From: an uncultured Actinomycetota bacterium
GTDB taxonomy: Bacteria; Actinomycetota; Actinomycetes; JAHEKZ01
Direction: 5' to 3'
Assembly (NCBI GenBank): GCA_963712425.1
Contig: CAVQHW010000001.1
Coordinates: 296,721 to 360,720 of the forward strand
Length of the DNA stretch: 64,000 nt
Notes under the pieces: generated by a model
What the model was told of the DNA's origin: nothing
What the model saw: the letters and a program-made list of their open reading frames with translations, nothing else
Database searches by the model: none
Shown: one piece after another, positions 1-35,487 of the stretch
How positions within the stretch are numbered: the stretch's first letter is position 1
Layout: the number at the start of each line of letters is the position of its first letter
Position numbers and translations under genes: made by a program

Positions 1-56
1 GTCTACCGGCGAATGAGGGGTATTGCACCGAAGCTGAGTCACGCAGGTCAAGCGAG

Positions 57-130
57 TGGGGCGGGTGGGGCTCGAACCCACGACCGACGGATTATGAGTC
101 CGCTGCTCTAACCGGCTGAGCTACCGCCCC
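57..130 (-). tRNA. tRNA with CAT anticodon, most likely tRNA-Ile2 (lysidine type)
   Basis: Reverse complement GGGGCGGTAGCTCAGCCGGTTAGAGCAGCGGACTCATAATCCGTCGGTCGTGGGTTCGAGCCCCACCCGCCCCA folds as a cloverleaf. Paired G1-C72 and no GGG/CCC anticodon stem argue against initiator Met; GGG acceptor and discriminator A favour Ile2 over elongator Met. Confidence 0.92.
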
Positions 131-201: not shown

Positions 202-903
202 ATGCGGCTCACACCCACCGAACGCGATCGACTCCTGGTCTTCTCAGCGGCTGAACTTGCCCGCCAACGCAAGGCGCGAGGGCTTCAGCTCAACGCCCCC
301 GAAGCCACAGCGATCATCGCTCACACCGTTATCGAAGCCGCACGCGACGGACGCCGGTTGCGCGAAGCAGTCAGCACCGCTCAGCAGGTGCTCTCCCCCG
401 ACGACGTGCTGCCAGGGGTCGCCGCTCTGGTACCTGAGGTATGGGTCGAAGCGGTGTTCGACGATGGCAGTCGCCTCGTGGTCGTGCCCGAACCCCTGGG
501 CGCGGCGTCCGAGCCCTCCCCCGGTGCAGTCACGCCAGCGAACGAGGAACTCCAGGTGACGCCCCCAACTGTCGCGCAGATCGAGGTCGAGAACACTTCT
601 GATGTCCCGATCAGCGTCACGTCGCACTTCCACTTCTTCGAGGTGAACCCTCGCCTGCGATTCGACCGGTCGGCCGCCTATGGCATGCGGCTGGCGATCG
701 GCGCAGGCGAAGCCGTCCGATTCGAACCACAGGGGACGCACTCCGTGCCGCTGGCGCCGATCAGTGGTGATCGCGTCGTGATCGGGTTCGCTGGCCTCGT
801 CGATGGGCCGCTTGATGCCGCGGGCGCCAAGGAGGCTGCCATCACGAAGGCCAGGGCGACCGGGTTTCTCGATTCGCGCGATTCAACGGGAGACACCGAA
901 TGA
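202..903 (+). CDS. ureAB: Fused urease gamma/beta subunit (UreAB), divergent clade
   Basis: N-terminal [12 protein letters not shown]...LNAPEA...[11 protein letters not shown] (gamma) joined to [34 protein letters not shown]...VRFEP (beta); ATGA overlap with the next gene. Confidence 0.93.
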
Positions 904-2573
904 AGGGCTCCGACTACGCCGCAATCCACGGGGCGACGACCGGCGACTTGGTCGCTCTCGGCGACACCGGATTGGTAGTACGAGTCGAGTCTGACTCCCA
1001 GAAACGCGGCGACGAGTTCTTGATGGGTTTCGGAAAGACCGCCCGCGATGGCATGCACTTACAAGCCGTGACCACATCGGAGTCGTGCGACCTCGTCGTC
1101 TCGAACGTGTTGCTGCTCGACCCGGTGCTTGGCATCAGGAAGGTGTCGATCGGCATTCGCGAAGGTCGCATCAGCGCGATCGGGCGAGCCGGTAATCCGA
1201 ACACGCTCGATGGCGTCGACGTCGTCGTCGGCAACAGCACGGCAGTCGTCAACGGCGAGGGGTTGATCGCTACACCTGGCGCGATTGACACCCACGTTCA
1301 CGCGATCTCGCCGCGCATCATGGAAGCGGCGTTGTCGTCTGGGGTCACGACCATCATTGCGCAAGAGTTCGGCCCGGTCTGGGGTGTTGGAGTGAACTCT
1401 CCGTGGGGGCTCCGCCATGCGTTCAAATCTTTCGATGCGTGGCCGGTGAACATCGGATTTCTCGGTCGTGGATCTTCCTCGGAACGAGGTCCGCTGCGCG
1501 AGGCACTGGAGCTGGGCGGCGTGTGCGGCTTCAAGGTGCACGAAGACACCGGGGCGCACGCTCGTGCACTCGACACAGCGCTCACCGTCGCCGAAGAGTA
1601 CGACGTGCAAGTGGCGCTGCACACCGATGGGCTCAACGAGAACATGTCGGTCGCCGACACGCTCGGTGTCATCGACGGTCGCACGATTCATGCCTTCCAC
1701 GTCGAAGGCTGCGGGGGCGGCCACGTTCCAAACGTGTTGCAGCTGGCCGGTGTAGCCAACGTCATCGGTTCGTCAACTAACCCGACACTTCCGTACGGAC
1801 GCGACGCAATCGACGAGCACCTCGACATGATCATGGCGAGCCACGGCATGAAACCAGATCTGCCCAGTGACGTGCAGATGGCGTCCGAGAGGATTCGCGG
1901 CGCAACGATGGCAGGCGAGAACGTGCTGCATGACCTTGGCGTCATCCCGATCACCACGTCGGACGCGCAGGGCATGGGACGTGCTGGAGAGACTGTCAAG
2001 CGAACCTTTGCTCTGGCCGCTGTCAACAAGCGTTACCGCGGACCGCTCGAAGGCGACGACGAGATGAGTGACAACACGCGAGTCCTGCAGTACGTCGCCA
2101 AGCTCACCATCAATCCAGCGATCGCCCACGGTTTCGCCGACGAGCTCGGATCCCTCGAGATCGGAAAGCTGGCTGACATCGTGCTGTGGGAGCCGGCGTG
2201 GTTCGGCGCCAAGCCGAGCCTCGTGCTGAAGGCAGGGTTCCCGGCGTGGGGTTTGACGGGCGACCCCAACGCGACGGTCGACCGCGCCGAACCGCTGGTG
2301 CTCGGCGCGCAGTTCGGGGCGCACGGCCCGGTGCCCGCCGACCTGTCGATCGCGCTGACCAACGGCGCATGCGACCCCGACGGTCTCGGACTCCGACGAC
2401 GGGCGTTCCCGGTGCATCACTGCCGGTCGATAGGCCTGCCAGACATGGTCGCAAACCGCCGAGTCGGTCAGACCGTGGTCGACACACGAGGCGAGCAGGT
2501 GACTTTCGACGGCGAGTTGTTGCGAGCGGAGCCGATCGAGTCGGTCAGCTTAAGTCGCCTGTACTTTCTCTAG
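900..2573 (+). CDS. ureC: Urease alpha subunit paralogue (Ni-amidohydrolase)
   Basis: Metal-ligand motifs IDTHVH, GFKVHED (carbamylated Lys), [18 protein letters not shown] and TSDAQGMGR; C-terminal [14 protein letters not shown] and [14 protein letters not shown]. Confidence 0.93.
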
Positions 2574-2601
2574 ACCCCGGTGCCGACGTCGGCCGATTGA
2601 C

Positions 2602-3465
2602 TCAGCCGCCGCCGGCCATCGTCTGCGTGATCTCCGTCGAGGAGTCGCCACCTCGACGCAGTACCACGGCAACGAAAGCGATGGCCGCGAGCGTTAGCAC
2701 CAGCAGCACTGTCGACACCGCCGCGATCTCGGGCCTCAGCGCGGATCGCACCGCCGAGAAGATGTAGACGGGCAAGGGGGTTGAGCCCGCAACGCTGATG
2801 AATGAGGCGATGATCGTGTTGTCAAGGCTGAGCGTGAACGCCAGCAGCGCAGCAGCAATCACCGCAGGCATCATCAAGGGCAACGTGATCTGACGAAACC
2901 GGTTCCACGGGGTCGCGTACAGATCCGCCGCAGACTCCTCAAGTGACTCATCGAGCCCGCTCATGCGCGCCCGAATAATGAGGGCGACCACTGCGGTGGC
3001 AAAGATTCCGCTACCAATCGTGAGTCGTACCAAGCCATCCTGGAACAGGGTCAACCCCGCGTCACCGCCGAGCCAGACGAACCAAGGAAGTAGCGCCACT
3101 GCGTCCACGATCTCGGGCGTCACCAACACCAGTGCCAGAATTCCGAGAAAGAAGTACGTCCACTTGCCTGGGCGCCTTGCGAGTGCGACACCAGCCAGAG
3201 ACCCCAAGATGGTCGACACGACTGCCGACAGCAGGGCTACGCGGATCGACACCCATAGGGCGTCTTTGATTGCTTCGTTCTGCCATACCGCTTCGTACGA
3301 GGTGAAGCCGAAGCTCTCCCACGACACCAACAACCGGCCGGTGTTGAACGAGTAGATGACGATGATGAGGATCGGCGCGAACAAGAAGAGGAAGACGAGC
3401 ACTCCCCAGACGGTCATCAGCACGTTGACCCAGTCGCGGCGCTTGCCGATTGTCTGCGCGCTCAC
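2602..3465 (-). CDS. Polyamine-type ABC transporter permease (PotC-like)
   Basis: Multiple TM helices, IYSFN motif, EAA loop LDESLEESAADLYATPWNRFRQITLP, FTLSLDN. Confidence 0.9.
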   Translation of the reverse strand: MSAQTIGKRRDWVNVLMTVWGVLVFLFLFAPILIIVIYSFNTGRLLVSWESFGFTSYEAVWQNEAIKDALWVSIRVALLSAVVSTILGSLAGVALARRPGKWTYFFLGILALVLVTPEIVDAVALLPWFVWLGGDAGLTLFQDGLVRLTIGSGIFATAVVALIIRARMSGLDESLEESAADLYATPWNRFRQITLPLMMPAVIAAALLAFTLSLDNTIIASFISVAGSTPLPVYIFSAVRSALRPEIAAVSTVLLVLTLAAIAFVAVVLRRGGDSSTEITQTMAGGG

Positions 3466-4433
3466 GCGACGCCACCGAGGTCAATTCGGCGGTTCCGACG
3501 AATCAGCGTGCGAGCGATCAATCCGAGCAGCGCGAACACGGCAGCCGTTCCGAGAATGAAGGCGATGAGGAGGACCGCCGTCGCTGATCCAAGCGCCCAG
3601 TTCTGCGCGCTCTGGAACATGTTGGCGACAAGGACGCCGATCATCGTTCCCTGCGCACCGCCAAGCAGCGAGGCAGTGATGTAGTCGCCCATCAAGGGGA
3701 TGAACACCAGCAAAAGCCCGGCCACCACACCAGGCATGGCGATCGGCAGGCTCACCTGTCGGAACGTTGCCCAGCGCCCGGCGTAGAGGTCTTTGCTGGC
3801 CTCTCGCAGCGTCGCGTCCAAACGGTCGAACGCCACGAATAGCGGCAGGATCATCAACGGCAGGTAGTTATAGATCGACGCCGATCTGCACTGCGGTTCG
3901 CGTCTTGTCGATTCCCGAGCGGGCTGCCCAACACCTTGATGTCTTGCAGGAAGCCCGAGAGGAACCCATCGGGAGCCAAGAATGATCTGCCACCCGATGG
4001 TGCGTACCAGGAAGTTCGTCCAGAACGGCACGAGCACCAGACCGAGCAGCAACCCACGCCACTTGGGATCAACCTTGACCGCCAACCAGTACGCAAACGG
4101 CAGAGCAACAATCAAGCAGAGGAAGGTGCCGATGATCGAGATCTGCAGGGTGTTCTTGAAGATGGGAACGTAGGCCGGCTCGAATGCCTCGACATACCGG
4201 TCGAACGACAACTTGTCGGTGGCGACGGTGTCGAAGATGCCTGGCTTGTAGCCAAGGCTGTAGTAGAAGACGAGACCGACCGGCGCCACAAAGAACAGCA
4301 GGAACCACACCCAGGCAGGCGCCGCCAGTGCCCACTTCGGTACCCACGAGCGACGCTTGCCCCTGGGACGACTCGGCTCAGGCTGAGCCGTCCCAGGGTC
4401 CTCCGCAACTGGTGGTTCGGTCGTGACGCTCAC
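3462..4433 (-). CDS. Polyamine-type ABC transporter permease (PotB-like); three compensating single-base insertions at about 3870-3975
   Basis: LVPFWTNFLVRT and YNYLPLMILPLF...LREASKDL motifs. The plausible segment APDGFLSGFLQDIKVLG...KTRTAVQIGV is spread over two other reading frames. Confidence 0.88.
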   Translation of the reverse strand: MSVTTEPPVAEDPGTAQPEPSRPRGKRRSWVPKWALAAPAWVWFLLFFVAPVGLVFYYSLGYKPGIFDTVATDKLSFDRYVEAFEPAYVPIFKNTLQISIIGTFLCLIVALPFAYWLAVKVDPKWRGLLLGLVLVPFWTNFLVRTIGWQIILGSRWVPLGLPARHQGVGQPARESTRREPQCRSASIYNYLPLMILPLFVAFDRLDATLREASKDLYAGRWATFRQVSLPIAMPGVVAGLLLVFIPLMGDYITASLLGGAQGTMIGVLVANMFQSAQNWALGSATAVLLIAFILGTAAVFALLGLIARTLIRRNRRIDLGGVA

Positions 4434-4435
4434 TA

Positions 4436-5614
4436 CTAGCCGACCGCCGCGGCCTTCATCTTGTTGGCTATCTCAACGCGCTGCTGCTGACTGTTGTTGA
4501 CTTCACCGGCGTCCATCGTGGCGATCTGGTCCGGCGTGAAGAACACCATGTCGAGCCGCTCGATGCCAGCCTCCTCGGCCGCAGGCTCAATGCCCTCGAC
4601 GGCGGTGTGGTAGCCGACCCAGCTCAGCGTCTGGAGCGAAACGTCCTTGTCGAGGTTGTAGTTGATCCACGCGTAGGCAGCGTTCGGGTTGGGTGCACCA
4701 GTCGGGATACACCAGTTGTCCATCCAGAGCTCAGAACGCGGCGCTGGGAAGACCCACTCCCACTTGTCGTCGTCGGCGCTCAGGATGCCCTGACGCCCGT
4801 CACCGTTCCAGGCCTGGCACAAGTAGTACGAGCCCTGCGGAATGCCGCTGCTGCCTGGGTACGACTCGAACGCCTTGATATGCGGCGCCAACTCGTTGAC
4901 CAGGAAGTCCTCGCACTCTTGGAGCAGAGCAGGATCCTCGGTGTTCCAGTCTTCGTCTTTCGACCAGAAGTAGATGCCGATCGACTCGTTCGGGTCGTCG
5001 AGGATGGACGTCTGCCCGCTTGCCTCGTTCTGTGTCGCGTCGATGAAGTCTTGCCACGTCGCCATCGGACGCGTGATCTTGGTCTTGTCGTAGACGTATC
5101 CAGTGGTGCCCCACGCCTTGGGTACCGAGTGCGCGTTGCCTGGGTCCCACGGCTGGTCGCGGTACTCCTCACCGATGTTCTCGAAGTTCGGAATGCGCGC
5201 CAGATCAAGCGGCATCAGCAGGTCGTTCTCGACCATTTGCGGGATGAAGACACCGGTGGGAACGACGATGTCGTACCCAGAGGTTCCCTCAGTGGCCACC
5301 AGCTTCGAGATCATCTCTTCGTTGGAGTTGTACGAGCTGACCTTGATCGTCGGGCCCTCTTGGTCGGTGAACTCCTTCATCACCTTGGGCCAGTCGTACT
5401 CACCCCACGTGAACATGTTGATCTGGTCTTCGAGCTCTCCGCTCGGAGCCGGTGACGCGCCAGCCGACGTGTCACCGTCGTCCCCACATCCGGTGATCAG
5501 TATCGAACTTCCAGCAACCGTCACCGTTGCGCCAGCCAGGAAGGCCCGACGTGAGATGCGGCTCATGGCAGCCGGGTGCGCGAGAACATTGACCATGTCG
5601 TCCTGGTCTGTCAT
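4436..5614 (-). CDS. Polyamine ABC substrate-binding protein (PotD/PotF-like) with Tat signal and lipobox
   Basis: SRRAFL twin-arginine motif, ITGC lipobox, TWGEY, SYNSNEEMISKL, YDIVVPT, PKAWGTTG, LWMDNWCIP. Confidence 0.9.
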   Translation of the reverse strand: MTDQDDMVNVLAHPAAMSRISRRAFLAGATVTVAGSSILITGCGDDGDTSAGASPAPSGELEDQINMFTWGEYDWPKVMKEFTDQEGPTIKVSSYNSNEEMISKLVATEGTSGYDIVVPTGVFIPQMVENDLLMPLDLARIPNFENIGEEYRDQPWDPGNAHSVPKAWGTTGYVYDKTKITRPMATWQDFIDATQNEASGQTSILDDPNESIGIYFWSKDEDWNTEDPALLQECEDFLVNELAPHIKAFESYPGSSGIPQGSYYLCQAWNGDGRQGILSADDDKWEWVFPAPRSELWMDNWCIPTGAPNPNAAYAWINYNLDKDVSLQTLSWVGYHTAVEGIEPAAEEAGIERLDMVFFTPDQIATMDAGEVNNSQQQRVEIANKMKAAAVG

Positions 5615-5670
5615 CGGTGACTCTCTTCCGTGAGAAGTGACTTCGTGTGTTGCGTGGACAAGCGTTGTAC

Positions 5671-6828
5671 CTATCCCCCTGCAATAACTTCTGACAGCTC
5701 ACTGGCTGGGTCAGCGAGCACAAACTCGGCCTGTTCGTCGGTGAACACCTGGCACTGCGACGGCTGCCACTGGCACCACACCCGCGCCCCTGGCAAGAGC
5801 CGTGGAGCACTTGTCCGCGGCACCCTGGCCAGCACCTCACCTTGACTGCTCGTCGTCACGACGAACTGAATGACGTCGCCGAGGTGTGACACGCCTGCCA
5901 ACACACCACTGAGGACGTTGTCGTTCGTGGCTGGCTGCGCCTCGAGGATTTCGACCGCCTCTGGCCGCACTGCCGCCAAAGCGTTGTCGCCGTTCTGCAG
6001 GGCGGGCGCCTCGCGACTGGACCGGCAGACCAAGCCGTCCGACTTGACGGCTGCGCCGCCGTCTTGGGCCACCCCACTGAAGAAGTTCTGCTGCCCGATA
6101 AACCCCGCGACGAATGCGGACTCTGGGTGTTCGTAGATCGTGTATGGGTCACCCAGTTGCTCAATCTGGCCATCGAGCATGACCGCGATGCGGTCACTCA
6201 TCGAGAGTGCTTCTTCTTGGTCGTGTGTGACGAAGATGAAGGTGATGCCGAGCTGCGACTGCAGCAGCTTGAGCTCAATCTGCATCTCTTCCCGCAGCTT
6301 GCGGTCGAGCGCACCGAGAGGTTCGTCGAGTAGCAGCAGGCTCGGTCGGTTGACCAGCGCTCGCGAGAGAGCCACGCGCTGCTGCTGACCACCCGACAAC
6401 TGCTTCGGCTTGCGCTCGGCAAGGGGCCGCATCTTGACCATGTCGAGCGCTTCGGCCACGCGCTGACTCATCTCGGCCTTGCCGACTCCGCGCTGGCGGA
6501 GCCCATACGCGACGTTCTCGGCCACCGTCATGTGGGGAAACAGTCCGTACGCCTGAAAGACCGTATTGACGTCGCGCTTGTGTGGTGGGGTTCCTGCGAT
6601 CGGCTTGCCACTGATGCGGAGCTCGCCAGACGTCGGTTCTTCAAAGCCTGCGAGCATGCGCAACGTCGTGGTCTTGCCACAACCACTCGGGCCCAGCAGC
6701 GACAGGAACTCCCCGGGCTGCACTGTCAGATTCACGTGGTCGACCGCGGTGAAGTCGCCGAACATCTTGACCACATCGACGAGCTCAACGGCTCCGGTCG
6801 CGCTCTCGGGGCGGCCTGCTTCTGTCAC
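5671..6828 (-). CDS. Polyamine ABC ATP-binding protein (PotA-like)
   Basis: Walker [17 protein letters not shown] signature, [15 protein letters not shown]-terminal TOBE-like region. The GTG start at 6828 is inferred; the ORF is open to 6912. Confidence 0.92.
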
Positions 6829-6949
6829 TCGTTGGCACCTCTTCCTGGTGTCCTGGCGTGCCTTGGCGCAGTCAAGCAGAGTTTCATGCCATGGGCGGAT
6901 ATTTGCGACCAAGTCGTGACCTCTGAGTCACGCTCGGTGACGGCCGAAA

Positions 6950-8591
6950 TCACCGGTGATAGACGATCTGGCCCGCCGCCACCGTGAGATCGACAGCAGC
7001 ATCGGCGATCGTTCCCTCGCTGAGACCGAAGATATTGCGGTCGACCACCGCAATATCGGCCCGGGAGCCCGGCACCAGGCGTCCAGAATCCTGATCATCG
7101 TGATTGACGTAGGCCGTTCCTGACGTGAAGGCCGCCAGCGCCTGTGGGAGCGGCACGCGCTCGTCCGGCAGGAAGGCGGCCGATCTCGGGCTCGGCCGGA
7201 TCACGCCGGTTGACCATCACGTCGATCTCTTCCAGCGGGTTGGCGCTGGTGACCGACCAGTCGCTGCCCCCGGCCAGCCGCGAGCCAGTGCGAAGCATCG
7301 ACCCAAACGGGTATTGCTGCTCGACCCGATCCTTGCCAAGGAACGGCACGGTGAGCTCTTCCATCTGCGAGTCGGATTGGGCCCAGAGCGGCTGACAGTT
7401 GGCCACCACGTCCAGCTTGCCAAACCGCGCGATGTCGTCGGGGTGCACGATCTGCACGTGCGCGATGTGGTGTCTGTTGTCGCTAGGTCCGTTGGCCGAC
7501 CGCGCGGACGCCACCGCGTCGAGTGAGTTTCGCACCGCGCGGTCACCGATCGCGTGCATGTGAACCTGGAAACCGAGGCGGTCGAGCTCGGTCACCGCTG
7601 CGGCCAGCAGGTCTTGCTCGACGTAGGAGAAGCCGTGGTTGTCGGTGTGTCCGCCACACCCATCGCAGTACGGCTCGAGAAGTGCTCCCGTGAAGTTCTC
7701 GAGCACACCGTCAGTCATGATCTTCACGCTGGTGGCGTGGTAGTTGCCTACCACCCCGTTCTCACGCTGCGCCAAGAACTGCGGCACCTGTTCAAGCCCC
7801 TGGTGTCGGTCCCACCACAGCGCCCCGACAACGCGGGCAGTCAGACGTCCGTCGGCTGCAAGGGCGCGGTAGGCGTCGTGCGTTCCGGGAGTGATCCATG
7901 CGTCCTGCCAAGCGGTGATGCCCAGTGCGTGCAGGTGGCTCTGCGCGTTGAGGATCGCCGCCTCCCACTCCTCTTGAGCAGGGATCGGGACGAGGGTGTC
8001 GTTCATCGTGTACGCGGCGCCCTCGTGGAGCATGCCCGTCGGCTCGCCCGTCTTGTCGTCGCGCTCGATGCGTCCGTCGGAGGGGTCGGCGGTGTCTTTC
8101 GTGATACCCGCACGCTCGAGCGTGACCGAGTTGACCCAGGCACCGTGGACGTCTTTGTTGAACAAGAACACCGGTCGGTCAGGCACGATCGCATCGAGGT
8201 CTTCTTTGCGGGGCAAACCACCGGGGAACGCCTCCATGGCCCAGCCACCACCGACGATCCAAGGCTCATCCGGGTTCGCGGCGGCATACTCGGCGATCAG
8301 CCGTAGGTAGTCATCGCGGCCAACGACGTCGTTGAGCCAGACCCGCAGGCGGTTTCGGCCAGCGAAGGGGGCATGAATATGGGCGTCCTGAAAGCCAGGG
8401 ACAGCTAGGCGTCCCGGCATCGAGATCACCTCGGTATTGGGGCCGCCACGAAACTGCGCAAGATCGCCGTCGTGCGTGCCGATCGCCAGAATTCGACCGT
8501 CCTTGATGGCGATCTCACGAGCCCACGACTGTTTCTCGTCGTTGCAGTAGACATCGAGGTCGGTGAGCAGCAGGTCAGCGGTGGGAGACAT
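6950..8591 (-). CDS. Amidohydrolase 3 family (YtcJ/NfdA-like) metal-dependent hydrolase; frameshift near 7190
   Basis: PGFQDAHIH, KIMTDG, HMHAIGD, HHIAH, GSDW motifs. The C-terminus (ALAAFTSGTAY...GRLVPGSRADIAVVD) lies in ORF 6950-7204 in another frame. Confidence 0.88.
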
Positions 8592-8650: not shown

Positions 8651-9307
8651 CTAACGTGCCCGGCGCATCAGACCGGCCGGGTCAAGCACCTCGATCCGCC
8701 CGCGACCCACCGCGATGAGCCCGGCGTCCTGCAAACTCATGAGCTCCTTGTTCGCCGTCGGTCGCGTCGTTCCAGCGAGGCCGGCCACATCCTCTTGAGT
8801 GATCGGAAGTGCTGTGCTCGAACTTGTCGCATACATCGCGTGAAGCTCGAGAAGTCGGCGACGTATGCGTTTGGGTACCGGAAGGTAAAGCGCTTCTACC
8901 AACTGGTGAGACAGGCGCCGAACTTCCGCAGTCATGATCTCGGTGAGCACTCGGTCGATGTCGCTGTCTCGCTGCCGCAGACCTGCGAAGGCGTCCGCCG
9001 TGATAACCAGCGTCTCGACGCTCTCGATCGCCCGAACCGTGGCGAGTCGCGGCCCCGGCGAGACCAGGGCCAGCTCACCGAAGTGACCTCCGGCGGCGAT
9101 GACACGGACCGTGGCAACGTCACCTTGAGGGGTGGTGATCCGCACGAAGACGTGACCGCTGGCGACCAGGTGAACCGTGTCTCCAGGATCTCCCTCGTGG
9201 AAGATGACCTCACCACGACCGAACTGTCGACGGCGAGCGTGACCGACCAATAGGTCACGGTCGGCGTCAGACAGCGATGCGAGTAACTGCCACTCGGGGT
9301 CGACCAC
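8651..9307 (-). CDS. Crp/Fnr family transcriptional regulator
   Basis: cNMP-binding domain (VIFHEGDPGD, GGHFGELAL, RLATVRA) plus HTH ITQEDVAGLAGTTRPTANKEL. Start inferred at GTG 9307. Confidence 0.88.
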   Translation of the reverse strand: MVDPEWQLLASLSDADRDLLVGHARRRQFGRGEVIFHEGDPGDTVHLVASGHVFVRITTPQGDVATVRVIAAGGHFGELALVSPGPRLATVRAIESVETLVITADAFAGLRQRDSDIDRVLTEIMTAEVRRLSHQLVEALYLPVPKRIRRRLLELHAMYATSSSTALPITQEDVAGLAGTTRPTANKELMSLQDAGLIAVGRGRIEVLDPAGLMRRAR

Positions 9308-9398
9308 AGCTTCTCCCTTCGTCCCGCCACCATAGGGGTTCGCCGCAGTACGCTCGTGGACGCGGCCAGCAGGTGCACGCGGCGCGCGAAGGAGGGGC

Positions 9399-12152
9399 AT
9401 GCCTGACGACGGGCAATCGACTCTCCCGCATGGGCTGGTGACCTTCTTGTTCACCGATGTCGCCGGTTCGACGCGGTTGTGGGAGGACGCGCCCGATGCC
9501 ATGGCGGCCGCCATGGTGGAGCACGACCAGCTGATCGAAGAAGTCATCGCAGGCCATGGCGGCGACCTCGTGCGCCCAAGAGGCGAAGGGGACAGCCGCT
9601 TCGCGGTGTTCGCACGACCCAGCGACAGCATCAGAGCAGCGGTAGACATCCAGCTGCGCATGATCGAGCACCCGTGGTCGACACCGCGGCCGGTCTCGGT
9701 GCGCATTGCGGTGCATACCGGCGAGGCCGATCTACGCGACGGTGATTACTACGGTCGGGCCGTCAACCGTGCAGCTCGGCTGCGTGCGGCCGGGCACCCC
9801 GGTCAGGTACTCGTCTCCGGCGAAACGCACGATCTCGCACAGGATGCGCTTCCGACTCACATCAAGCTTCGACCTTTGGGAAGCATCGCCCTCGCAGACC
9901 TCGAACGTCCCGAACCGGTGTACCAGGTTCAGCACATCGACCTCCCGGGCGAGTTCCCACCGCTCATAGCCTCGGCCCGCGCGGGAGTGAAGCTGCCACC
10001 TCTGACCCCTGACTTTCTCGGGCGCGACTCGCTTGTCGAAGAAGTGGCTGGAGAACTGATAGGTGGCGATACCAGGCTTGTCACACTCACCGGGCCAGGC
10101 GGGGTGGGAAAGACGCAACTTGCGCTCGCCGTCGCCCTGAGCCTGAGAGACGAGTTCCCTGGTGGAGTCTTCTTCGTGGCACTGGCTGACGTCTCAACGT
10201 CGGCAGCGGCACTCTACGCACTGGCGGCAGCCGTCGAGGTCCGAGAGTCCAACGCCGAGGAACTGCTCGACACCGTGGTCAGGTCGATTTCATCCGCTCC
10301 CGTGCTACTGCTCCTCGACAACGGTGAACAGGTCAGTGGCCTCGATGCATTGGTTGCCGAGCTCCTCTCAAACGTCGAGCAACTCGCCGTGATCACTACA
10401 TCGCGCTCACCGCTTCGGCTCCGCGCCGAGCACCGCGTGCCAGTCCCTCCCCTGGGGCTCCCACCCCGAGATGACCTCGACGGATTGGGCCCGAACGAGG
10501 CCCGAGGCTACCCGTCGCTTGACCTGTTTGTGCGTCGCGCTCAGGCAGTCGATCCGAGCTTCCAACTCGACGACGAGTCACTGCCTTCAGTCCTCGAGAT
10601 CTGCCACCGACTCGAGGGGTCACCGTTGTCCCTTGAACTGGCTGCTGCGCGCACCGACATCCTCAGCCTCCACGACATCGAGCAACGACTTTCAACTCAA
10701 CTGACGCTGCTGACGTCCAGCCACGTGGACATCCCTGAGCGGCAGCGCACCGCGCGGGCCACCATCGAGTGGAGCGTCTCGTTGCTCGCCCCCTCCGAGC
10801 GAGCCGCCTTGTTCACTCTCTGCCTGTTGGTGGGGCCATTCACTCTCAGCGACGCCACCGCCCTGTGCCCCGGGCAAGACAGCGCCGTCACGATGGGGGC
10901 GCTAGTCGACTCCAGCCTCGTGCACACCAGCCGAACGTCCACGGGGCGCTTCTTCGACGTCGCCGAAGCCGTCCGGCAGTACGGACGGACCGCTCTCGAA
11001 GAGTCAGGAAACGTCGATGCCGAACGGGTTCGGTCGTTGCGCCACCTCACGGACGTCGTGACGACATGGGCGCCGAAGCTGGACACCTCTGAGGCCACAA
11101 CGGCCGTAACCCAGATTCGACGTCGGTATGAAGACATTCGCGGCGCCATCGAGTGGACACACAGACGGGGCAGCGCATCCGACGCGGGGCCTCTGCTCGC
11201 CGCGCTACGTCGCTACTGGGTGTACGACGGACAGTTGCGAGAACCATCGGTGTGGCTCGTACGTTGGCTCGATGCAGCAACACCTGACGACCATTGCCGA
11301 GCCGACATCGAGCTGGCGGCCGGTGTACTCGCGTACTTGCTTGGAGACACTCCAGCGGCGACAACGCTGCTAGAGCAATGTCTGCTCCGGGACCAGGTAG
11401 GGAGCGCGACCCTAGCTCGCGGCTACCTCGGAGCTGTCTCACTCGGTGAAGGCGATGTCGAGCGTGCCTCGGCTATGGCTGCGGAGTGCGAGCGGCTCGC
11501 CACCACCGCCAACGACTACACCGCCGAGTCCCTAGCACTGTCTCTGAGGGCTGTGATCGCAGCTGTGGCCGGCGACACCCCGCTCGAGAAGGCGCGCTAC
11601 CTTCGTCGACTGGCACTGGCGAGGGATGTCGGCGACGAGCGACGCACTGCGGAGACACTCAACAACCTCGCCGAGGTCGCCCTGGCAGAGGGCGACATTT
11701 CAAGCGCCAGCCTGTTCGCGCAGGAGGCCCTGACAACAGCCCGCCAATCGGGGCGCATGGTCACACGAGACGCGCTGTACACCCAGGCCAGACTCGACTT
11801 GATGCGCGAAGACGCCCTTAGCGCTTTGGTGCACGCGCGCGAGTCACTCCAACTGAGCCTCGACCTGGGGCAACCATTCGAGACCTCACAGGCTGTCACC
11901 CTGATCGGCGCGATTGCCGTTGATCTCGGCCGTACTGGTGAGGGGGCCGAGCTGATGGCTGCGGGCCAGCGCATGCGATCGGCCTCTGGGCCGCCCCTCG
12001 ACGTCGACCTCGAACCAGAACTCGAGGAATACCGTCGGCGAGTCGCCACCGAATTGGGTGTCCCCGACTTCGAAGATGCCGCCGGACGCGGTGCGACGAT
12101 CTCGATGGAGAGCGCCGCTCAACTGGCGATGGGGATTCTGCCGACGCGATAG
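9399..12152 (+). CDS. Class III adenylate/guanylate cyclase fused to STAND (NB-ARC-like) ATPase and TPR-like repeats
   Basis: TFLFTDVAGST, GEGDS, GDYYGRAVNRAARL; Walker A GPGGVGKT, Walker B LLLLDN, GSPLSLELAAAR; helical repeats such as AETLNNLAEVAL. No C-terminal LuxR HTH. Confidence 0.9.
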   Translation: MPDDGQSTLPHGLVTFLFTDVAGSTRLWEDAPDAMAAAMVEHDQLIEEVIAGHGGDLVRPRGEGDSRFAVFARPSDSIRAAVDIQLRMIEHPWSTPRPVSVRIAVHTGEADLRDGDYYGRAVNRAARLRAAGHPGQVLVSGETHDLAQDALPTHIKLRPLGSIALADLERPEPVYQVQHIDLPGEFPPLIASARAGVKLPPLTPDFLGRDSLVEEVAGELIGGDTRLVTLTGPGGVGKTQLALAVALSLRDEFPGGVFFVALADVSTSAAALYALAAAVEVRESNAEELLDTVVRSISSAPVLLLLDNGEQVSGLDALVAELLSNVEQLAVITTSRSPLRLRAEHRVPVPPLGLPPRDDLDGLGPNEARGYPSLDLFVRRAQAVDPSFQLDDESLPSVLEICHRLEGSPLSLELAAARTDILSLHDIEQRLSTQLTLLTSSHVDIPERQRTARATIEWSVSLLAPSERAALFTLCLLVGPFTLSDATALCPGQDSAVTMGALVDSSLVHTSRTSTGRFFDVAEAVRQYGRTALEESGNVDAERVRSLRHLTDVVTTWAPKLDTSEATTAVTQIRRRYEDIRGAIEWTHRRGSASDAGPLLAALRRYWVYDGQLREPSVWLVRWLDAATPDDHCRADIELAAGVLAYLLGDTPAATTLLEQCLLRDQVGSATLARGYLGAVSLGEGDVERASAMAAECERLATTANDYTAESLALSLRAVIAAVAGDTPLEKARYLRRLALARDVGDERRTAETLNNLAEVALAEGDISSASLFAQEALTTARQSGRMVTRDALYTQARLDLMREDALSALVHARESLQLSLDLGQPFETSQAVTLIGAIAVDLGRTGEGAELMAAGQRMRSASGPPLDVDLEPELEEYRRRVATELGVPDFEDAAGRGATISMESAAQLAMGILPTR

Positions 12153-13637: not shown

Positions 13638-14361
13638 TCAGGCTACCGACCCAACGGCGACGAGCGCCGGGCGATCCAGAATCTGCAGACCGTCTGAGAA
13701 CCGCAGGACTCCTCGTTGCTCCAAACTTCCCAGTTCACGATCCACTTGACTCGTGGTGACTCCAGACAGTCCTGACAGGTCACTGAGCGTGACCGGTAGC
13801 GACGCGGTTGGGTCGTGCCCCCACGGTAGTTCGAGGATCACCCGCGCAAGTCGCGCGCGCCACGGAGCCCGAGCGATCCGCCAGCCGACGCGAGAGGGCA
13901 GCGGAACGCTCAGAGAGGATCCGAAGGAAGAGGTCGTCGAGTTCTGGATAGTCGGCGCGAACCCGCGTGCAGGCCTCATCATCAAGTTCCATCAGCCGAC
14001 ACGAGCTGCGCGCTGCGGCAGTGGCGCTGCGCCTTGCGGAGCGGGCGAAGAGGGCCATCTCACCGAGCAGTTCGCCGGGCCCTCGAACAGCAATCGTCAC
14101 AGGGTCCGCGGAGCCTCCGTCCACTTCGATCGCCACCAACCCGCTGCTCACGAGGAAGAGCGAGCCTCCGGTGTCGCCTTCGGCGAACACAATGTCTCCC
14201 GGCGCAAAAGTTCGTAGCGCACTGGCGTCGACCAGCCCACGTGACGCGGCCGCAGACAACGACGTGAAGGGAGACTCGATCACCGCCCCAGTGTGCTCCC
14301 CAGCACCTGGCGGCGTGAGGACTCCCGGCAATTCCCCATCAATCACCCATTCGCCGGTCAC
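13638..14361 (-). CDS. Second Crp/Fnr family regulator; frameshift in a GC-dinucleotide run at about 13855
   Basis: cNMP domain (IVFAEGDTGG, GELLGEMAL, RSATAAA) in ORF 13780-14361; HTH (LPVTLSDLSGLSGVTTSQVDRELGSL) in ORF 13638-13985. Confidence 0.8.
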
Positions 14362-14475: not shown

Positions 14476-15675
14476 GTGCGAAGCATGCGTTGGGTCAGAG
14501 TCGCTGGGGCACCGGTCGTTGCGTGTGTCGTCGCAGGTGCGCTGCTCGGGGCGCCGTCGGACGCCGCAGTCGCCAACCCCTGCGAGATGCGCGTCACCCT
14601 CGATCGAGTCAGCAGCGTGACGTACGGCAACGGCGTTGAGCGCCAGAAGTACGAGGTCAAGGTCTCGTGGAGTGATCGTTCGCAGACCGCCGAGGTGCAT
14701 CGCATGGTGATGCCGGCGTCCGCCGAACCACGGCTGGTCACCAAGAAGCTCGGCACCCTCAGCCAGTTGAAGTCGCAACTCGAAAGCCCGAAAGGCAAGC
14801 GCGGTATCGCTGCGGTCAACGGTGACTTCTTCTACGGGTACCGCATCGACGGACAGACCGTCTACCTGCCGCGAAATGCTTCCGTCAGCAAGGGCAAGCC
14901 AGTACGCCTCGGCCCTGAGCGCACTCGCGTTGTCGGGATCGACAAGGAGGGCAACCCCTTCGACGGTGAGGTGGGCATCAAAGGCACCGTCGCGCACGGG
15001 CAGAAAGTGTTCGCAGTCGACAGCCTCAACTGGCACGCCATCGGTGACGGCGCCGTCGCCATATACACGCCAGCGTGGAGTGACGTCTCGACAGCGAAGC
15101 GTCCAGCGGGCGCGGTCGAGTGGGTCGTCAAGCAGGACAAGATCATCGACGTTCGCAGCGGACGCCAGACGGGCAAGACCGTCAAACCGCATACCAAGGT
15201 CGTCGCGTTCGGCAAGAACCATGCGCGCGCCGCGAAACGGGCAGCTGACCGGTCTGCCGCTCTCATTGCGGTCAAGCAGACCACGGGAACGGGGACGCCA
15301 CTGCGCGACGCCATCGGTCGGGGCGTGTCACTCGTCGAAGCTGGCGAGGTCGACCTGGCGTGCGAAGGCAAGTGGTACCAGCAGCGACCGCGGACGACCG
15401 TCGGATGGGACGCGCAGGGCAACTGGATGACACTCTCGTTGCCGGGTAGCGGGTACGACCGCAACGGATACCGGGTCGGCGGTCTCGGGCTTGCCCAAGA
15501 GGCCAACGTCGCCATCGCTCTGGGCTTCGTTGAGGCGTCCGAACTCGACGGTGGCGGTTCGACGACAGCGCTGGTGCGACGCTCGGACGGCGGCTGGGAC
15601 CGAGTCGACGACCCAGACACCCTGTGGCAACGCCCGATCCCGAACGCGCTGGTGTGGGTCAAGCCGCAGCGCTAG
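14476..15675 (+). CDS. Secreted phosphodiester glycosidase (NAGPA/DUF2233-like) family protein
   Basis: Signal peptide; AAVNGDFF, PRTTVGW, ELDGGGST and RPIPNAL motifs. Confidence 0.85.
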   Translation: MRSMRWVRVAGAPVVACVVAGALLGAPSDAAVANPCEMRVTLDRVSSVTYGNGVERQKYEVKVSWSDRSQTAEVHRMVMPASAEPRLVTKKLGTLSQLKSQLESPKGKRGIAAVNGDFFYGYRIDGQTVYLPRNASVSKGKPVRLGPERTRVVGIDKEGNPFDGEVGIKGTVAHGQKVFAVDSLNWHAIGDGAVAIYTPAWSDVSTAKRPAGAVEWVVKQDKIIDVRSGRQTGKTVKPHTKVVAFGKNHARAAKRAADRSAALIAVKQTTGTGTPLRDAIGRGVSLVEAGEVDLACEGKWYQQRPRTTVGWDAQGNWMTLSLPGSGYDRNGYRVGGLGLAQEANVAIALGFVEASELDGGGSTTALVRRSDGGWDRVDDPDTLWQRPIPNALVWVKPQR

Positions 15676-15694
15676 TGCCGCCTACGATCGATCC

Positions 15695-17014
15695 GTGACC
15701 GACTCGGACTACTCCCTCACGGCGTCTCCCGGCCGACTCCTGCCTGTCGCTACCCACGCGTCCGGCATGCGCATCTACGACCGCGACGGCCAGGAGTGGC
15801 TGGACGCCTGTGGCGGCGCGATGGTCATGAGCCTCGGCCACTGCCACCCACGTTTGGTGAAGGCCGCTCAGGACCAACTCGAGAAACTCACGTTCACCTA
15901 TCGCTTCTCGTTCTCGAACGAACCGATGATCGAGCTGGCCGGGTTGATTCGTGACGTTGCCCCGATGGATCGCGGGTGGGCGTTCTTCAACTCCTCTGGG
16001 TCGGAGTCAATCGAGTCTGCGATCCACCTGGCGTTGTTGTACTGGAAACACATGGGGCGTCCGAGCAAGACGCAGCTCATCTCGCGGTTCCCCAGCTTTC
16101 ACGGCTCCACCCTCGGCGCTCTCGGGTTGTCTGGGTCGCGATGGCGTGAGTCGTTCGACCACGTGCTCGAGGACAACCCGATCGCTCAGGCACCCAACGC
16201 TGACATCCGATCAGGTCGAACCGAAGCCGAAGAGGTTGCCTTCGGCTTGCAACAGATCGAGGACGCCCTGCTGCTTCGCGGGCCCGAGAACGTCGCGGCC
16301 GTGTTCCTCGAACCGATCACCGGGGCCAGCACCGCAGCGGTCGTTCCCCCTGACGGCTACCTCGAGGGGGTTCGCGCGCTCTGCGACCGCTACGAGGTGT
16401 TGATGATCTGTGACGAGACCGTCACTAGCTTCGGGCGTACCGGCACCTGGTGGGCGGTTGACCACTGGAACGTGCAGCCCGACATCGTCACCTTCGCCAA
16501 GGGAGTCACCAGCGGCGTCACGCCGTTCTCCGGTTTGGCGATGACCGGAACCATCGCCGACGTGTTCAGCTCAGCGCCTGAGGGGTTTCCCTACGGGCAC
16601 ACCTACTCAGGAAACCCGGTCGGCTGCGCAGTAGCCGCCGAGGTCATTCGCACCATCCGCGACGAAGGCCTGCTCGAGAACAGCGCCGAGATGGGTAAAC
16701 GTCTCGAAGTCGGTCTGCGCGAGATCGCTGACGGTTCTCCGCACATCGGACAGGTGCGCGGACGCGGCTTGCTGCAGGGCATCGAACTCGTCACCGACAA
16801 GGACACACTCACGCCACTGGCCGGCGCCTCCTATGCCCTCGCTGGGTTGGCTCGCGACCGGCACCTGATGATCTACAGCTGCCCAACCCCTCTGGGTGAT
16901 ACCACGATCGAAGCGGTGATGCTCGCTCCCCCGCTCACCATCACCGAAGCTGACGTCGACGAGATCCTGAACCGCCTCGGGGACGCCGTGACCGACCTCG
17001 GTCGCCCCTCCTAA
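15695..17014 (+). CDS. Class III PLP-dependent aminotransferase
   Basis: LDACGG, NSSGSESIE, SFHGSTLG, LEPITG, ICDETVTSFGRTG, DIVTFAKG (PLP Lys), GHTYSGNP. Start inferred at GTG 15695. Confidence 0.9.
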   Translation: MTDSDYSLTASPGRLLPVATHASGMRIYDRDGQEWLDACGGAMVMSLGHCHPRLVKAAQDQLEKLTFTYRFSFSNEPMIELAGLIRDVAPMDRGWAFFNSSGSESIESAIHLALLYWKHMGRPSKTQLISRFPSFHGSTLGALGLSGSRWRESFDHVLEDNPIAQAPNADIRSGRTEAEEVAFGLQQIEDALLLRGPENVAAVFLEPITGASTAAVVPPDGYLEGVRALCDRYEVLMICDETVTSFGRTGTWWAVDHWNVQPDIVTFAKGVTSGVTPFSGLAMTGTIADVFSSAPEGFPYGHTYSGNPVGCAVAAEVIRTIRDEGLLENSAEMGKRLEVGLREIADGSPHIGQVRGRGLLQGIELVTDKDTLTPLAGASYALAGLARDRHLMIYSCPTPLGDTTIEAVMLAPPLTITEADVDEILNRLGDAVTDLGRPS

Positions 17015-26472: not shown

Positions 26473-28081
26473 TCACGTTGAGACGGCTTCCTGGCGCTTT
26501 CCGCTCGGAGTCAGCGGCTCGTGTGGGAGGTCACGGGTCGTGGCCAATGAGACCAAGGCGATGAGCGCGGCAAGAAGAAGTCCTGCCTTCAGCGCAGCGA
26601 GTTGGGCTTGCTCGTAGTCCTCAACGAGTGCCGCCGTCGTGGCTTCGTCAAGCCCCGCATCCTCGGCGGCCGCCCGGAGCTGGTCGCTCGCGATGAAGTC
26701 GACTCCCGTATCCACAGAGGCGCTTACCTGTGATGAGATCTCACTGCTGATTCGAGGGTCAGACTCAATCTTCGAAACGAACACACCAGCGAGCCCGGCC
26801 AAGACGAGAGCGCCTATCAGAGCAACACCTAAGGAAGAGCCGAGTTGTTGTCCGGTGTACTGCAAACCGCCAGCCTCAGCGCGCCCGGACGCGTCGACCG
26901 ACGACTGAAGGACGTTGCCCAACTGTGAGGCGAGCATGCCCATCCCCACACCCAGCAGAGCCATCGCCAAGGCGAAACTGCCCTCGGCAAGGTCGGGCTC
27001 CACGGTGCCGAGCAAGATCACCGTAGCGATGACGGTAATGACCAGACCAGCTCGCACAATCGTGCGGACGGTGTATCGCGTTGACAGCCGTGACCCGACG
27101 GCCGCTGCGAGGAACATAGTGATCGAGACCGGGAGCATCTTGATACCGGTCTCGAGCGCGTCCATGCCGAGAACAAGCTGAAGGTAGAGCGGTACTACAA
27201 AGAAGACGCCCATCAGAATGAGATTCTGGGAGAACAGGCCCATGAGGCCGGCCCGCAGCTTGGACAATCTTGAGCAAGGACAAGTGGACCAGCGGGTCCT
27301 GACCCGTAGCCTCGCGATGCCGCTGCCACGCGACAAAACCCCACACAAGGACTCCACCCAGGGCGATGACAAACGGAGCCAGCGAAAGACCGAACGGCTC
27401 GACGGGTGAATCCTTGGGCTGAAGCAGACCCCAGGTAGACGACTGCAGAACGCCAAGCACGATGAGACCGAGACCGGATGCCGACAGGAATGTGCCCACG
27501 CCGTCCAGCCGGGGGCGGTGACCCTCGCGCTCCGCGTCGACAATCAACCGGCTCATCGCCAAGATGAACAGCACCAGCACGACTTCGCCAATGAAAATGA
27601 CCCGCCAGGAAAGCTCGGTCGTCGCCCACCCGCCGAGAATCGGGCCTATGGCGATGCCGGCTCCGGCGACGCCCCCGATCACCGCATAGGCAATCTTGCG
27701 TTCTCGTCCTTCAAAGTTTCCTGCGATCAAGGCTGCTAGAGCGGGCAACACCAACGAGGCTCCCACGCCCTCAAGAATCGACCAGCCAAGCGTCAGGATC
27801 CCGACACTCGGAGCCAGAGCGGTCATCAACGAGCCACACCCGTAGATCACGAGTCCGACGGCGAACGCCCGCCTCCGCCCGATGATGTCGCCAATCTTGG
27901 CACCGGTGAGCATGAACATGGCCATCACCAGGCAGTACAAAGTAATCACTGCCTGGATGGTCGTGACTGTCGTGTCGAAGTCATCCACAAGAGTGCTGAT
28001 CGAGACGTTCATGACCGATTGGTCCAAGACCATCACAAACTGAGCGGTTGCTAACGCAACTAGGGGCCACCACCGCTTCAC
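26473..28081 (-). CDS. MFS DHA2 (EmrB/QacA-like) transporter; frameshift at about 27260
   Basis: QFVMVLDQSVMNV, GDIIGRRR, GPILGG; the second half (GIKMLP, GLQYTGQQLGSSLG) is in ORF 26473-27543. Confidence 0.88.
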
Positions 28082-28212
28082 TGGTCCTCCTTGTCGCGGT
28101 CAGACATCCCGCCTCGGTTCACGTCGGCCGACAGACTAGCGGTCGAGCGCGTTCTCGGATTTCGACAGTAGGGTTGGTCGTCACCGCACGAATGTCGACG
28201 GAAGGCCTGACC

Positions 28213-35137: not shown

Positions 35138-35414
35138 AGTGGTGATTGTGGCAGGTCAGACGATTCCTGAGTGCGGTTTCTCATACGTGATCTCACTTGC
35201 TGCCTTCGCTCAAGTGGATCGATCTCGAACGGCCATAACGGCGGGGAGTGCTTGCGTCCGTTGCTACTCGCGCCGACCTACCATTTGGGTGAGGGGGTTG
35301 TTTGGAAGCGGAACTCGACGGAATCTCGGCTGGAACATGACTCCTATTGCACGTATGTTGCACACGGCCTCGGGTAACAAGATCGAGATACGCTCTGACC
35401 TGCGAAAATGCGTG

Positions 35415-35487
35415 CTCCCGCGACTGGACTCGAACCAGTAACCTGCCGGTTAACAGCCGGCTGCTCTGCCAATTGAGCTACGCGGGA
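35415..35487 (-). tRNA. tRNA-Asn(GTT)
   Basis: Reverse complement TCCCGCGTAGCTCAATTGGCAGAGCAGCCGGCTGTTAACCGGCAGGTTACTGGTTCGAGTCCAGTCGCGGGAG folds as a cloverleaf; no encoded CCA. Confidence 0.96.

Follow-up and report, generated by a model that had tools for sequence, protein, structure and literature searches.

The locus

The genes described here lie at the beginning of a stretch of 64,000 nucleotides (nt) from an uncultured Actinomycetota bacterium (contig CAVQHW010000001.1), which is referred to as a whole as the window and within which coordinates are counted from the first letter. Two units converge at this point. The plus-strand unit, ureAB-ureC, encodes a fused gamma/beta subunit and an alpha-subunit homologue of urease, whilst the minus-strand operon, read from 8591 down to 2602, has the order amh3-potA-SBP-potB-potC. 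Its first gene, amh3, encodes a YtcJ-like amidohydrolase, and the genes that follow specify an ATP-binding cassette (ABC) importer of the Pot type together with its substrate-binding protein (SBP). The original prediction had placed the urease pair 28 bp from a co-oriented set of amidohydrolase and pot genes, and its coordinates hold, both for gene content and for the gap, by Pfam, NCBIfam and direct reading of the sequence (Table 1). The spacer between ureC and potC contains a short palindrome, CCGACGTCGG, and a consensus scan called no terminator within 2574–2601. The stop of potB and the start of potC overlap by 4 nt.

Table 1. Coordinates of the urease-like pair, the amh3-pot operon and the adjoining tRNA gene in the window
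Feature	Position	Strand	Basis
tRNA-Met gene, directly 5' of ureAB	56..130	-	ARAGORN and Rfam
ureAB, fused urease gamma/beta, 233 aa	202..903	+	Pfam Urease_gamma and Urease_beta; NCBIfam NF009671
ureC, urease alpha-subunit homologue, 557 aa	900..2573	+	Pfam Urease_alpha and Amidohydro_1
Convergent spacer, 28 bp, ureC stop to potC stop	2574..2601	.	Sequence read directly
potC-like ABC permease, 287 aa	2602..3465	-	Pfam BPD_transp_1
potB-like ABC permease, 323 aa	3462..4433	-	Pfam BPD_transp_1
PotD/PotF-family substrate-binding lipoprotein, predicted Tat export, 392 aa	4436..5614	-	Motifs and structure matches
potA-type ABC ATPase with TOBE domain, 413 aa	5671..6912	-	Pfam ABC_tran and TOBE_2
amh3, YtcJ-like Amidohydro_3 metallohydrolase	6950..8591	-	Pfam PF07969, E 1.6e-67

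The urease homologue and its clade

The fused UreAB protein scores 302.5 against the NCBIfam model NF009671, "bifunctional urease subunit gamma/beta", for which the cut-off is 243, and UreC matches the solved ureases of the PDB with E-values of around 1e-150. UreC also passes the NCBIfam subfamily model NF009686, but misses the equivalog model TIGR01792 (618.5 against 680 bits). It belongs to a discrete group of proteins that are at least 60% identical to each other and at most 47.5% identical to canonical ureases. The 80 best genome loci of this clade, which constitute the urease-side survey, are all from Actinomycetota and have UreC identities of 67–85%, and amongst annotated plasmids four actinobacterial UreC records reach 61–64% with all others at or below 47.5%. 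The window protein shares 68–71% identity with the Streptomyces and Kitasatospora members and falls inside the clade in a neighbour-joining (NJ) tree. On sequence grounds, the window pair belongs to the accessory-free ure(AB)C clade of Actinomycetota, of the type represented by SCO5525-5526 of Streptomyces coelicolor.

The catalytic apparatus of a urease is fully retained. The residues looked for were those of the binuclear site, namely the HxH motif, the carbamylated Lys, two His and an Asp, along with the catalytic His219, Asp221, His320 and Arg336 (Klebsiella aerogenes numbering), and the window protein has the complete set of metal ligands and catalytic residues, as H132, H134, K212, H214, D216, H241, H267, H315, R331 and D355. 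In ureases, urea is bound by the backbone carbonyls of A167 and A363. Across the clade, and with positions again given in K. aerogenes numbering, the urea-pocket loop GGGTGPxxGSKATTVTPGxW is replaced, with an A167V change and an adjacent deletion of four residues, and SDSQAMGR becomes SDAQGMGR (A363G). The canonical segment HTEGAGGGHAPD is likewise replaced clade-wide, HEDW reads HEDM or HEDT, and the flap cysteine (Cys319) is not conserved, being a Ser in the window.

In comparisons with orthologues, the ratio of non-synonymous to synonymous substitution (dN/dS) has an overall range of 0.07–0.17, with values of about 0.13–0.16 for ureAB, 0.09 for ureC and 0.07–0.1 for amh3. All three genes are under purifying selection, and the low ratio for ureC means that UreC is strongly constrained.

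Two plasmid-borne members of the clade are found in a different setting, at 7273–9653 of L081 (S. anulatus plasmid NZ_CP109401) and 7291–9677 of L082 (Embleya plasmid NZ_CP108786). Here ure(AB)C lies within an apparent non-ribosomal peptide synthetase (NRPS) cluster, which encodes adenylation-domain and condensation-domain proteins, two APH-type phosphotransferases, a 528-aa protein assigned to no family and a protein with weak likeness to 2-oxoglutarate-Fe(II) (2OG-Fe(II)) oxygenases. The two UreC proteins are 61–62% identical to that of the window and basal in the clade tree. This NRPS context suggests that secondary metabolism, too, has recruited the accessory-free urease fold.

Accessory genes and the metal centre

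The original prediction had remarked on the absence of ureD, ureE, ureF and ureG from the 64 kb, and indeed none is found in the window by tblastn and phmmer with accessory proteins taken from Gordonia, Methylobacterium and Paenibacillus loci, nor by Pfam on approximately 50 of its open reading frames (ORFs). The same is true of the wider clade, as none of the 80 loci has ureF, ureG, ureD or ureE within 10 kb. The accessory-free arrangement is not in itself new, since two-gene ure(AB)C clusters lacking accessory genes have been described in S. coelicolor (SCO5525-5526) and S. avermitilis (PMC2492869), and cave Streptomyces carry the pair with ureFGD sets elsewhere in the genome (PMC5489568).

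The window encodes no nickel transporter, only ZnuABC-type genes some 45 kb away. An SBP_bac_5 protein near the Kitasatospora ure(AB)C was considered as a nickel-transport clue to the metal and rejected, as it scores far below the NikA cut-offs. We can only infer which metal is used and whether its centre is assembled without UreDFG.

The amidohydrolase Amh3

The metal-binding motifs of Amh3, which comprise the HxH in FQDAHIHAP, the K in SVKIMTDG, HMHAIGD, HIAH and GSDW, are invariant in 28 homologues, and the family has in addition its own invariant PYCDGCGGH loop. No NCBIfam model matches the protein. Its closest structures are the uncharacterised Pyrococcus proteins 3icj and 3igh, with 23–24% identity, and a search of the PDB with an Amh3 structure model (predicted local distance difference test, pLDDT, 82) was discarded as a source of clues to the substrate, as it returned just these two followed by generic superfamily members. 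The label "NfdA-like" used in the original prediction reflects only a family-level resemblance. Within the YtcJ-like group, the phenylurea hydrolase HylA cleaves N-substituted ureas (PMC8406775).

The invariant loop (LEPYCDGCGGHTDNHG) contains two invariant cysteines and corresponds to residues 295–322 of the related protein P0121, or approximately 7630–7710 in the window amh3. It is absent from 3icj, and in the Amh3 structure model the PYCDGCGGH loop is disordered or of very low confidence. The cysteine loop could close over the substrate as a lid or bind an additional metal.

By comparison with P0121, an intact 546-aa relative (locus L084) of 96% identity, the reading frame of amh3 is broken by a 1-nt insertion near 7183/7184, which splits it into minus-strand ORFs at 7095–8591 and 6950–7204. 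The extra base is missing from short-read contigs of three metagenomes. Because of these contigs and of the 96%-identical relative, an assembly error is likelier than a pseudogene, and the frameshift is probably an error of long-read assembly.

The Pot-type importer

The substrate-binding protein had been taken to be a lipoprotein exported by the twin-arginine translocation (Tat) system and part of a PotD-type polyamine importer, and both assignments hold at the level of sequence. The Tat motif reads SRRAFLAG and the lipobox LITGC. Its best solved relatives are all polyamine binders, with PotD of S. pneumoniae (4eqb, E 3e-45) followed by SpuE, PotD and PotF. In the numbering of Escherichia coli PotD, nine out of nine ligand-contact residues are kept, which are the aromatic box of W34, Y37, W229, W255 and Y293 and the acidic residues E36, D168, E171 and D257. 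The changes relative to PotD are T35 to G, S83 to T and Y85 to V, the last being A or P in other orthologues.

The ATPase, the two permeases and a cluster-D binding protein are encoded together, as expected for a PotABCD-type system. The potA product passes the polyamine ATPase subfamily model TIGR01187 (381.5 against 355.6), whilst PotC and PotB are the best NCBIfam matches of the two permeases and the equivalog cut-offs are missed by a wide margin for PotC (182 against 326), PotB (173.5 against 348) and PotD (113 against 582). As far as these scores can tell, the window importer is a relative and not an orthologue of E. coli PotABCD. The binding protein appears to fit a polyamine-like cation, its residues not specifying which one.

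A recurring partnership

The urease-side loci were set alongside 80 metagenome loci gathered from the Amh3 side, in which Amh3 is 59–80% identical to that of the window. The convergent layout recurs in L003–L008 and L049 of the urease side and in L087 and L088 of the Amh3 side, so the adjacency is not a peculiarity of one genome. A second arrangement, ureAB-ureC-amh3-APC permease-CN_hydrolase, is on one strand and occurs in Nonomuraea, Sphaerimonospora and metagenome-assembled genomes (MAGs; L018, L040, L069, L090 and L112). An Amh3 orthologue with 66–69% identity is encoded immediately 3' of ureC in Nonomuraea aridisoli, Sphaerimonospora cavernae, a Phycicoccus MAG and another MAG, and an amh3 gene in this position is usually followed by the APC permease and CN_hydrolase genes. 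The third arrangement is NCS1 permease-amh3-ureAB-ureC, found in L132 and L142, with L136 having amh3-ureAB-ureC and its upstream flank cut off. The amh3 gene is therefore found beside three types of importer, Pot-type ABC, APC and NCS1, in three gene orders. Because these importer families are unrelated and the gene orders differ, inherited synteny cannot explain the linkage. Moreover, in NJ trees UreC and Amh3 divide into matching subclades that correspond to the type of importer.

The urease pair is not present in every such locus. The operon amh3-potA-SBP-potB-potC occurs without any urease in L139, L145, L152, L155, L156 and L161, amh3-APC-CN_hydrolase occurs with or without ureAB-ureC upstream, and NCS1-amh3 is also found without it. 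The stable core is Amh3 and an importer, with Ure(AB)C as a frequent third member. Apparent genes of 477 aa and 234 aa (d4 and d23) that converge on potC in urease-less loci were considered, on account of their size and order, as a cryptic ureC/ureAB pair, and were dismissed as antisense shadows of highly conserved plus-strand genes, having no Pfam match.

In the Streptomycetaceae the partner is a different enzyme. An AguA-like gene of the PAD_porph family follows ureC on the same strand within 600 nt in 59 of the 65 loci, which gives substance to the hint of an agmatine deiminase in the original prediction. These AguA-like proteins do not reach the equivalog cut-off for agmatine deiminase (316 against 382). 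The loci also contain a TetR regulator (55 of 65) and, less often, a divergent NCS1 permease (29 of 65). SCO5527 has been listed as the aguA homologue of S. coelicolor (PMC3293853), and as it stands beside ure(AB)C the trio SCO5525-5527 is the model-organism version of the partnership. Within the window's own UreC subclade, one locus (L009) carries an AguA-like gene in place of amh3. Since this locus and the Streptomycetaceae have the AguA-like gene instead, the two partner enzymes look interchangeable, and nearly every informative locus of the UreC clade has one or other of them beside ureC.

The recurring linkage upholds that part of the original prediction in which the two units act as one conserved module, whilst the accessory-free pair at its centre was already on record. 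No paper was found that describes linkage of ure(AB)C with YtcJ-like or agmatine deiminase genes. The new part appears to be the conserved partnership of the UreC clade with Amh3 or AguA-like enzymes and with importers that can be swapped.

One MAG, MFD09779.bin.1.42, contains the complete ureAB-ureC/potCBDA-amh3 module twice, on contigs 17 and 12 (L005 and L006). The two copies resemble the window to a similar degree, and they reflect either a real duplication or the binning of two strains into one MAG.

A proposed route and its alternatives

The chances are about even that the locus encodes one conserved nitrogen-scavenging module, in which an imported guanidino- or ureido-amine is processed by the partner enzyme and then by the urease homologue. 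The Pot-type importer would take up a polyamine-like cation, most likely an amine of the agmatine or N-carbamoylputrescine type that bears a guanidino or ureido group. Amh3, as a binuclear metallo-amidohydrolase, would attack the guanidino or ureido carbon, a task that would fall to the AguA-like enzyme in the Streptomycetaceae. Ure(AB)C would then hydrolyse the carbamoyl (ureido) product, or free urea, to give the amine, CO2 and NH3.

The individual elements of this route differ in strength. Functional coupling of the urease homologue with its partner enzyme is well supported and probable. A substrate of the agmatine or N-carbamoylputrescine type would be just short of an even bet, and a substituted urea as the substrate of Ure(AB)C is a tentative proposal, with the balance somewhat against it. 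AguA-family enzymes convert a guanidino group into a ureido group, and with an AguA-like partner such a conversion is a better candidate than the deacylation envisaged in the original prediction. Because this chemistry yields a ureido product, and because the urea pocket has been rebuilt, a carbamoyl-amine is modestly favoured over urea as the substrate of Ure(AB)C. We infer both the identity of the substrate and the order of the two hydrolytic steps. In its most far-reaching form, the proposal would make Ure(AB)C the first urease-superfamily enzyme with an N-substituted urea, such as N-carbamoylputrescine, as its physiological substrate and with a metal centre formed without UreD, UreF or UreG, acting with AguA-like or Amh3 enzymes in a widespread Actinomycetota route from guanidino-amine to amine that includes SCO5525-5527 and makes use of interchangeable importers. 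In this full form the idea is rather unlikely to be correct.

A number of observations weigh against the route. The convergent units of the window are not co-transcribed, no RNA runs containing the region were found, and amh3 is frameshifted in the assembly. Many Amh3 orthologues have no urease nearby, some having neither an importer nor a urease, and importer-only loci include L126 and L141 besides L139, L155, L156 and L161. A CN_hydrolase accompanies Ure(AB)C in some operons, an apparent redundancy if the simplest scheme holds. In S. coelicolor an AguB homologue is encoded elsewhere, at SCO6414 (PMC3293853), and Ure(AB)C is not needed there for the classical agmatine route. Amongst 18 orthologues of the binding protein, the aromatic box, E36 and D257 are kept but the equivalents of D168 and E171 vary. 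Finally, the fully urease-like catalytic machinery would keep plain urea a credible substrate.

In an alternative explanation, UreDFG encoded elsewhere in the genome would mature Ure(AB)C as a conventional nickel urease and Amh3 would release free urea from the imported compound, for instance as an agmatinase-like amidinohydrolase acting on a guanidino-amine, so that the coupling would be real and the urease chemistry the usual one. We consider this a minority possibility, though one of some weight. Besides the intact metal ligands and catalytic residues, it is in keeping with the solved ureases as best matches, with the NCBIfam urease subfamily models that are passed and with the ureFGD sets that ure(AB)C-bearing Streptomyces hold elsewhere (PMC5489568), and it accommodates the Amh3 linkage equally well. 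It is harder to reconcile with the AguA-family partners of 59 of the 65 loci, which would yield ureido compounds and ammonia but no urea unless the substrate were guanidine. A clade-wide change of the residues that hydrogen-bond urea (the deletion in the A167 loop, A363G and the W of HEDW) is unexpected for an enzyme with the same substrate, the TIGR01792 equivalog model is missed, and a second plain urease would be redundant where ureABCFGD is already present.

In a guanidine-based variant, Amh3 or the AguA-like enzyme would produce urea by deiminating free guanidine or methylguanidine, and the dedicated urease of this assimilation route would be Ure(AB)C. Such a scheme would unite both partner types with a true urease, as deimination of guanidine gives urea, and the variety of importers is common for small nitrogen compounds. 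It is nonetheless very improbable, since Rfam at gathering thresholds detects no guanidine or other riboswitch in either the window or seven representative loci, a PotD-type cleft with an aromatic box and a number of acidic residues is better suited to a longer cation with two or three charges than to guanidinium, and the remodelled urea pocket is left unexplained. The remaining explanation dispenses with coupling altogether, in that the pot-like operon would import spermidine or putrescine, Amh3 would be unrelated (an acetylpolyamine or N-acyl deacylase, for example) and the urease would be a neighbour through inherited synteny. The two units do converge and have separate promoters, amh3-potADBC is found without a urease in L139, L155, L156 and L161 and many other Amh3 orthologues are also urease-less, and the binding-protein residues would suit unmodified polyamines. 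However, amh3 and ureAB-ureC stay adjacent through three gene orders and three importer families, the matching subclades of the UreC and Amh3 trees would have no explanation, and an Amh3 or AguA-like gene is beside ureC in nearly all informative loci of the clade, which together make an absence of coupling improbable.

Upstream regions and neighbouring genes

The tRNA-Met gene leaves only about 70 nt for the promoter and leader of ureAB, and the adjacency is kept in the close relatives L088 and L003–L007. Within this region (131–201), some 40 nt before the ureAB start (GTGAAAGTTACCCCAAAGGTGTTGGATCGGGGGTATG) are near-identical in the window and in five MAG loci, L003–L007, whose proteins are merely 75–85% identical. 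This element, squeezed against the conserved tRNA-Met gene, may be a promoter, an operator or part of a leader. An inverted repeat of 15 nt in the same region (134–148 and 175–189) was rejected, as it is not conserved in relatives. Riboswitch control, by guanidine especially, was set aside because Rfam returned tRNAs only in the window; the seven representative loci gave just a tRNA and a spurious match to 5_ureB_sRNA, a Helicobacter antisense RNA. This match, at 15295–15585 of L088, is barely above the gathering threshold and lies within the ureC coding sequence, where it is almost certainly due to coding-sequence similarity and no RNA gene.

Directly 5' of amh3, and on the same strand, is a gene for a Crp-family regulator that binds cyclic nucleotide monophosphates (cNMP; 8651–9706, minus strand). 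Its ORF overlaps by about 300 nt the opposite-strand gene at 9399–12152 (plus), which encodes a 917-aa adenylate/guanylate cyclase-NB-ARC-TPR protein of the AfsR-like type, and on account of this overlap the true start of the Crp-like gene is probably internal. The gene was rejected as part of the module, as it is not conserved 5' of amh3 in related loci. A second cNMP-binding protein is encoded at 13780–14361 (minus).

A class-III aminotransferase gene (15491–17014, plus), 7 kb from the module, belongs to the omega-amine/putrescine aminotransferase superfamily and has no equivalog assignment. The only CN_hydrolase of the window, which is of the Nit6803 type, is encoded at 28048–29160 (plus), about 19 kb from the Amh3 gene. 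Both enzymes could act in amine catabolism. Between about 29500 and 36000 the G+C content is lower (approximately 0.60) and only short ORFs pass a codon-bias filter; this stretch ends at a tRNA-Asn gene (35414–35487, minus) beside dnaG. The remainder of the window is housekeeping in character by Pfam, with dnaG, dgt, ppdK, dus, glyS, znuABC, uppS, recO, leuA, ybeY and phoH, and the proteins closest to those of the window come from MAGs labelled Actinomycetes or Nanopelagicales.

Significance

As the textbook nickel enzyme, urease is known for needing assembly by UreDEFG, a theme central to metalloenzyme biology. The clade described here offers a handle both on the formation of a urease-type centre without chaperones and on the recruitment of the urease fold to non-urea substrates, and it would be considerably more interesting if substituted ureas were indeed the substrates of Ure(AB)C or if UreDFG were not needed for its maturation. 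The SCO5525-5527 genes give model-organism access to the module. There is also a practical consequence, in that "urease subunit alpha" annotations in genomes of the clade may overstate ureolytic potential, which bears on the inferences made from metagenomes about nitrogen cycling in soil and freshwater.

Comparison with known systems

The nearest known counterpart is SCO5525-5526 of S. coelicolor (PMC2492869; PMC3293853), which shares with the window a fused gamma/beta and an alpha gene, the absence of ureDEFG beside them and membership of the same UreC clade. Loci of the S. coelicolor type differ in having an AguA-like partner, SCO5527, where the window has Amh3 and a Pot-type ABC importer. 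The literature found gives no function for the Streptomyces ure(AB)C pair.

The canonical UreABC ureases of K. aerogenes, Sporosarcina pasteurii and Yersinia enterocolitica (4z42 and 6yl3) have the fold, the subunits and the binuclear site with its carbamylated Lys in common with the window proteins. In contrast, the window UreC is only about 46% identical to theirs and the window lacks the accessory genes, the pocket loop, the W of HEDW, A363 and the flap Cys. The iron urease UreA2B2 of Helicobacter mustelae works without dedicated accessory genes. It has a fused gamma/beta subunit like that of the window, but in sequence it is no closer than other ureases (3qga, E 2.6e-141). The proteobacterial ureEF(AB)CGD clusters of Methylobacterium (pNMS14P1), Bradyrhizobium (BTAi1) and P. 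syringae (B728a) also have the (AB) fusion, and this group includes the closest UreC outside the clade, at 47.5% identity; it has been shown to cluster with the Streptomyces ure(AB)C (PMC2492869). Unlike the window, these clusters have their own ureE, ureF, ureG and ureD and a urtA urea-binding protein, and they retain the canonical GGxxGP, HEDW and CHH motifs.

The importer shares the four-component layout of PotABCD and PotFGHI of E. coli and the ligand-contact residues of PotD, and differs from them in that its operon is led by an amidohydrolase gene and its binding protein is a Tat lipoprotein. Amh3 has the PF07969 fold and metal motifs of the YtcJ-like HylA (PMC8406775) and of 3icj and 3igh, to which it adds its own PYCDGCGGH loop.

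For the proposed chemistry, the closest precedent is the AguA/AguB agmatine deiminase pathway of Pseudomonas aeruginosa, which is summarised in PMC9397018. The logic of guanidino to ureido to amine is the same, and an AguA-family gene is the usual partner of the UreC clade in the Streptomycetaceae. The window itself contains no AguA-like gene and no AguB (TIGR03381), its sole CN_hydrolase being Nit6803-like. Compared with the AguA/AguB route, the Amh3 and Ure(AB)C of the window would be non-homologous replacements.

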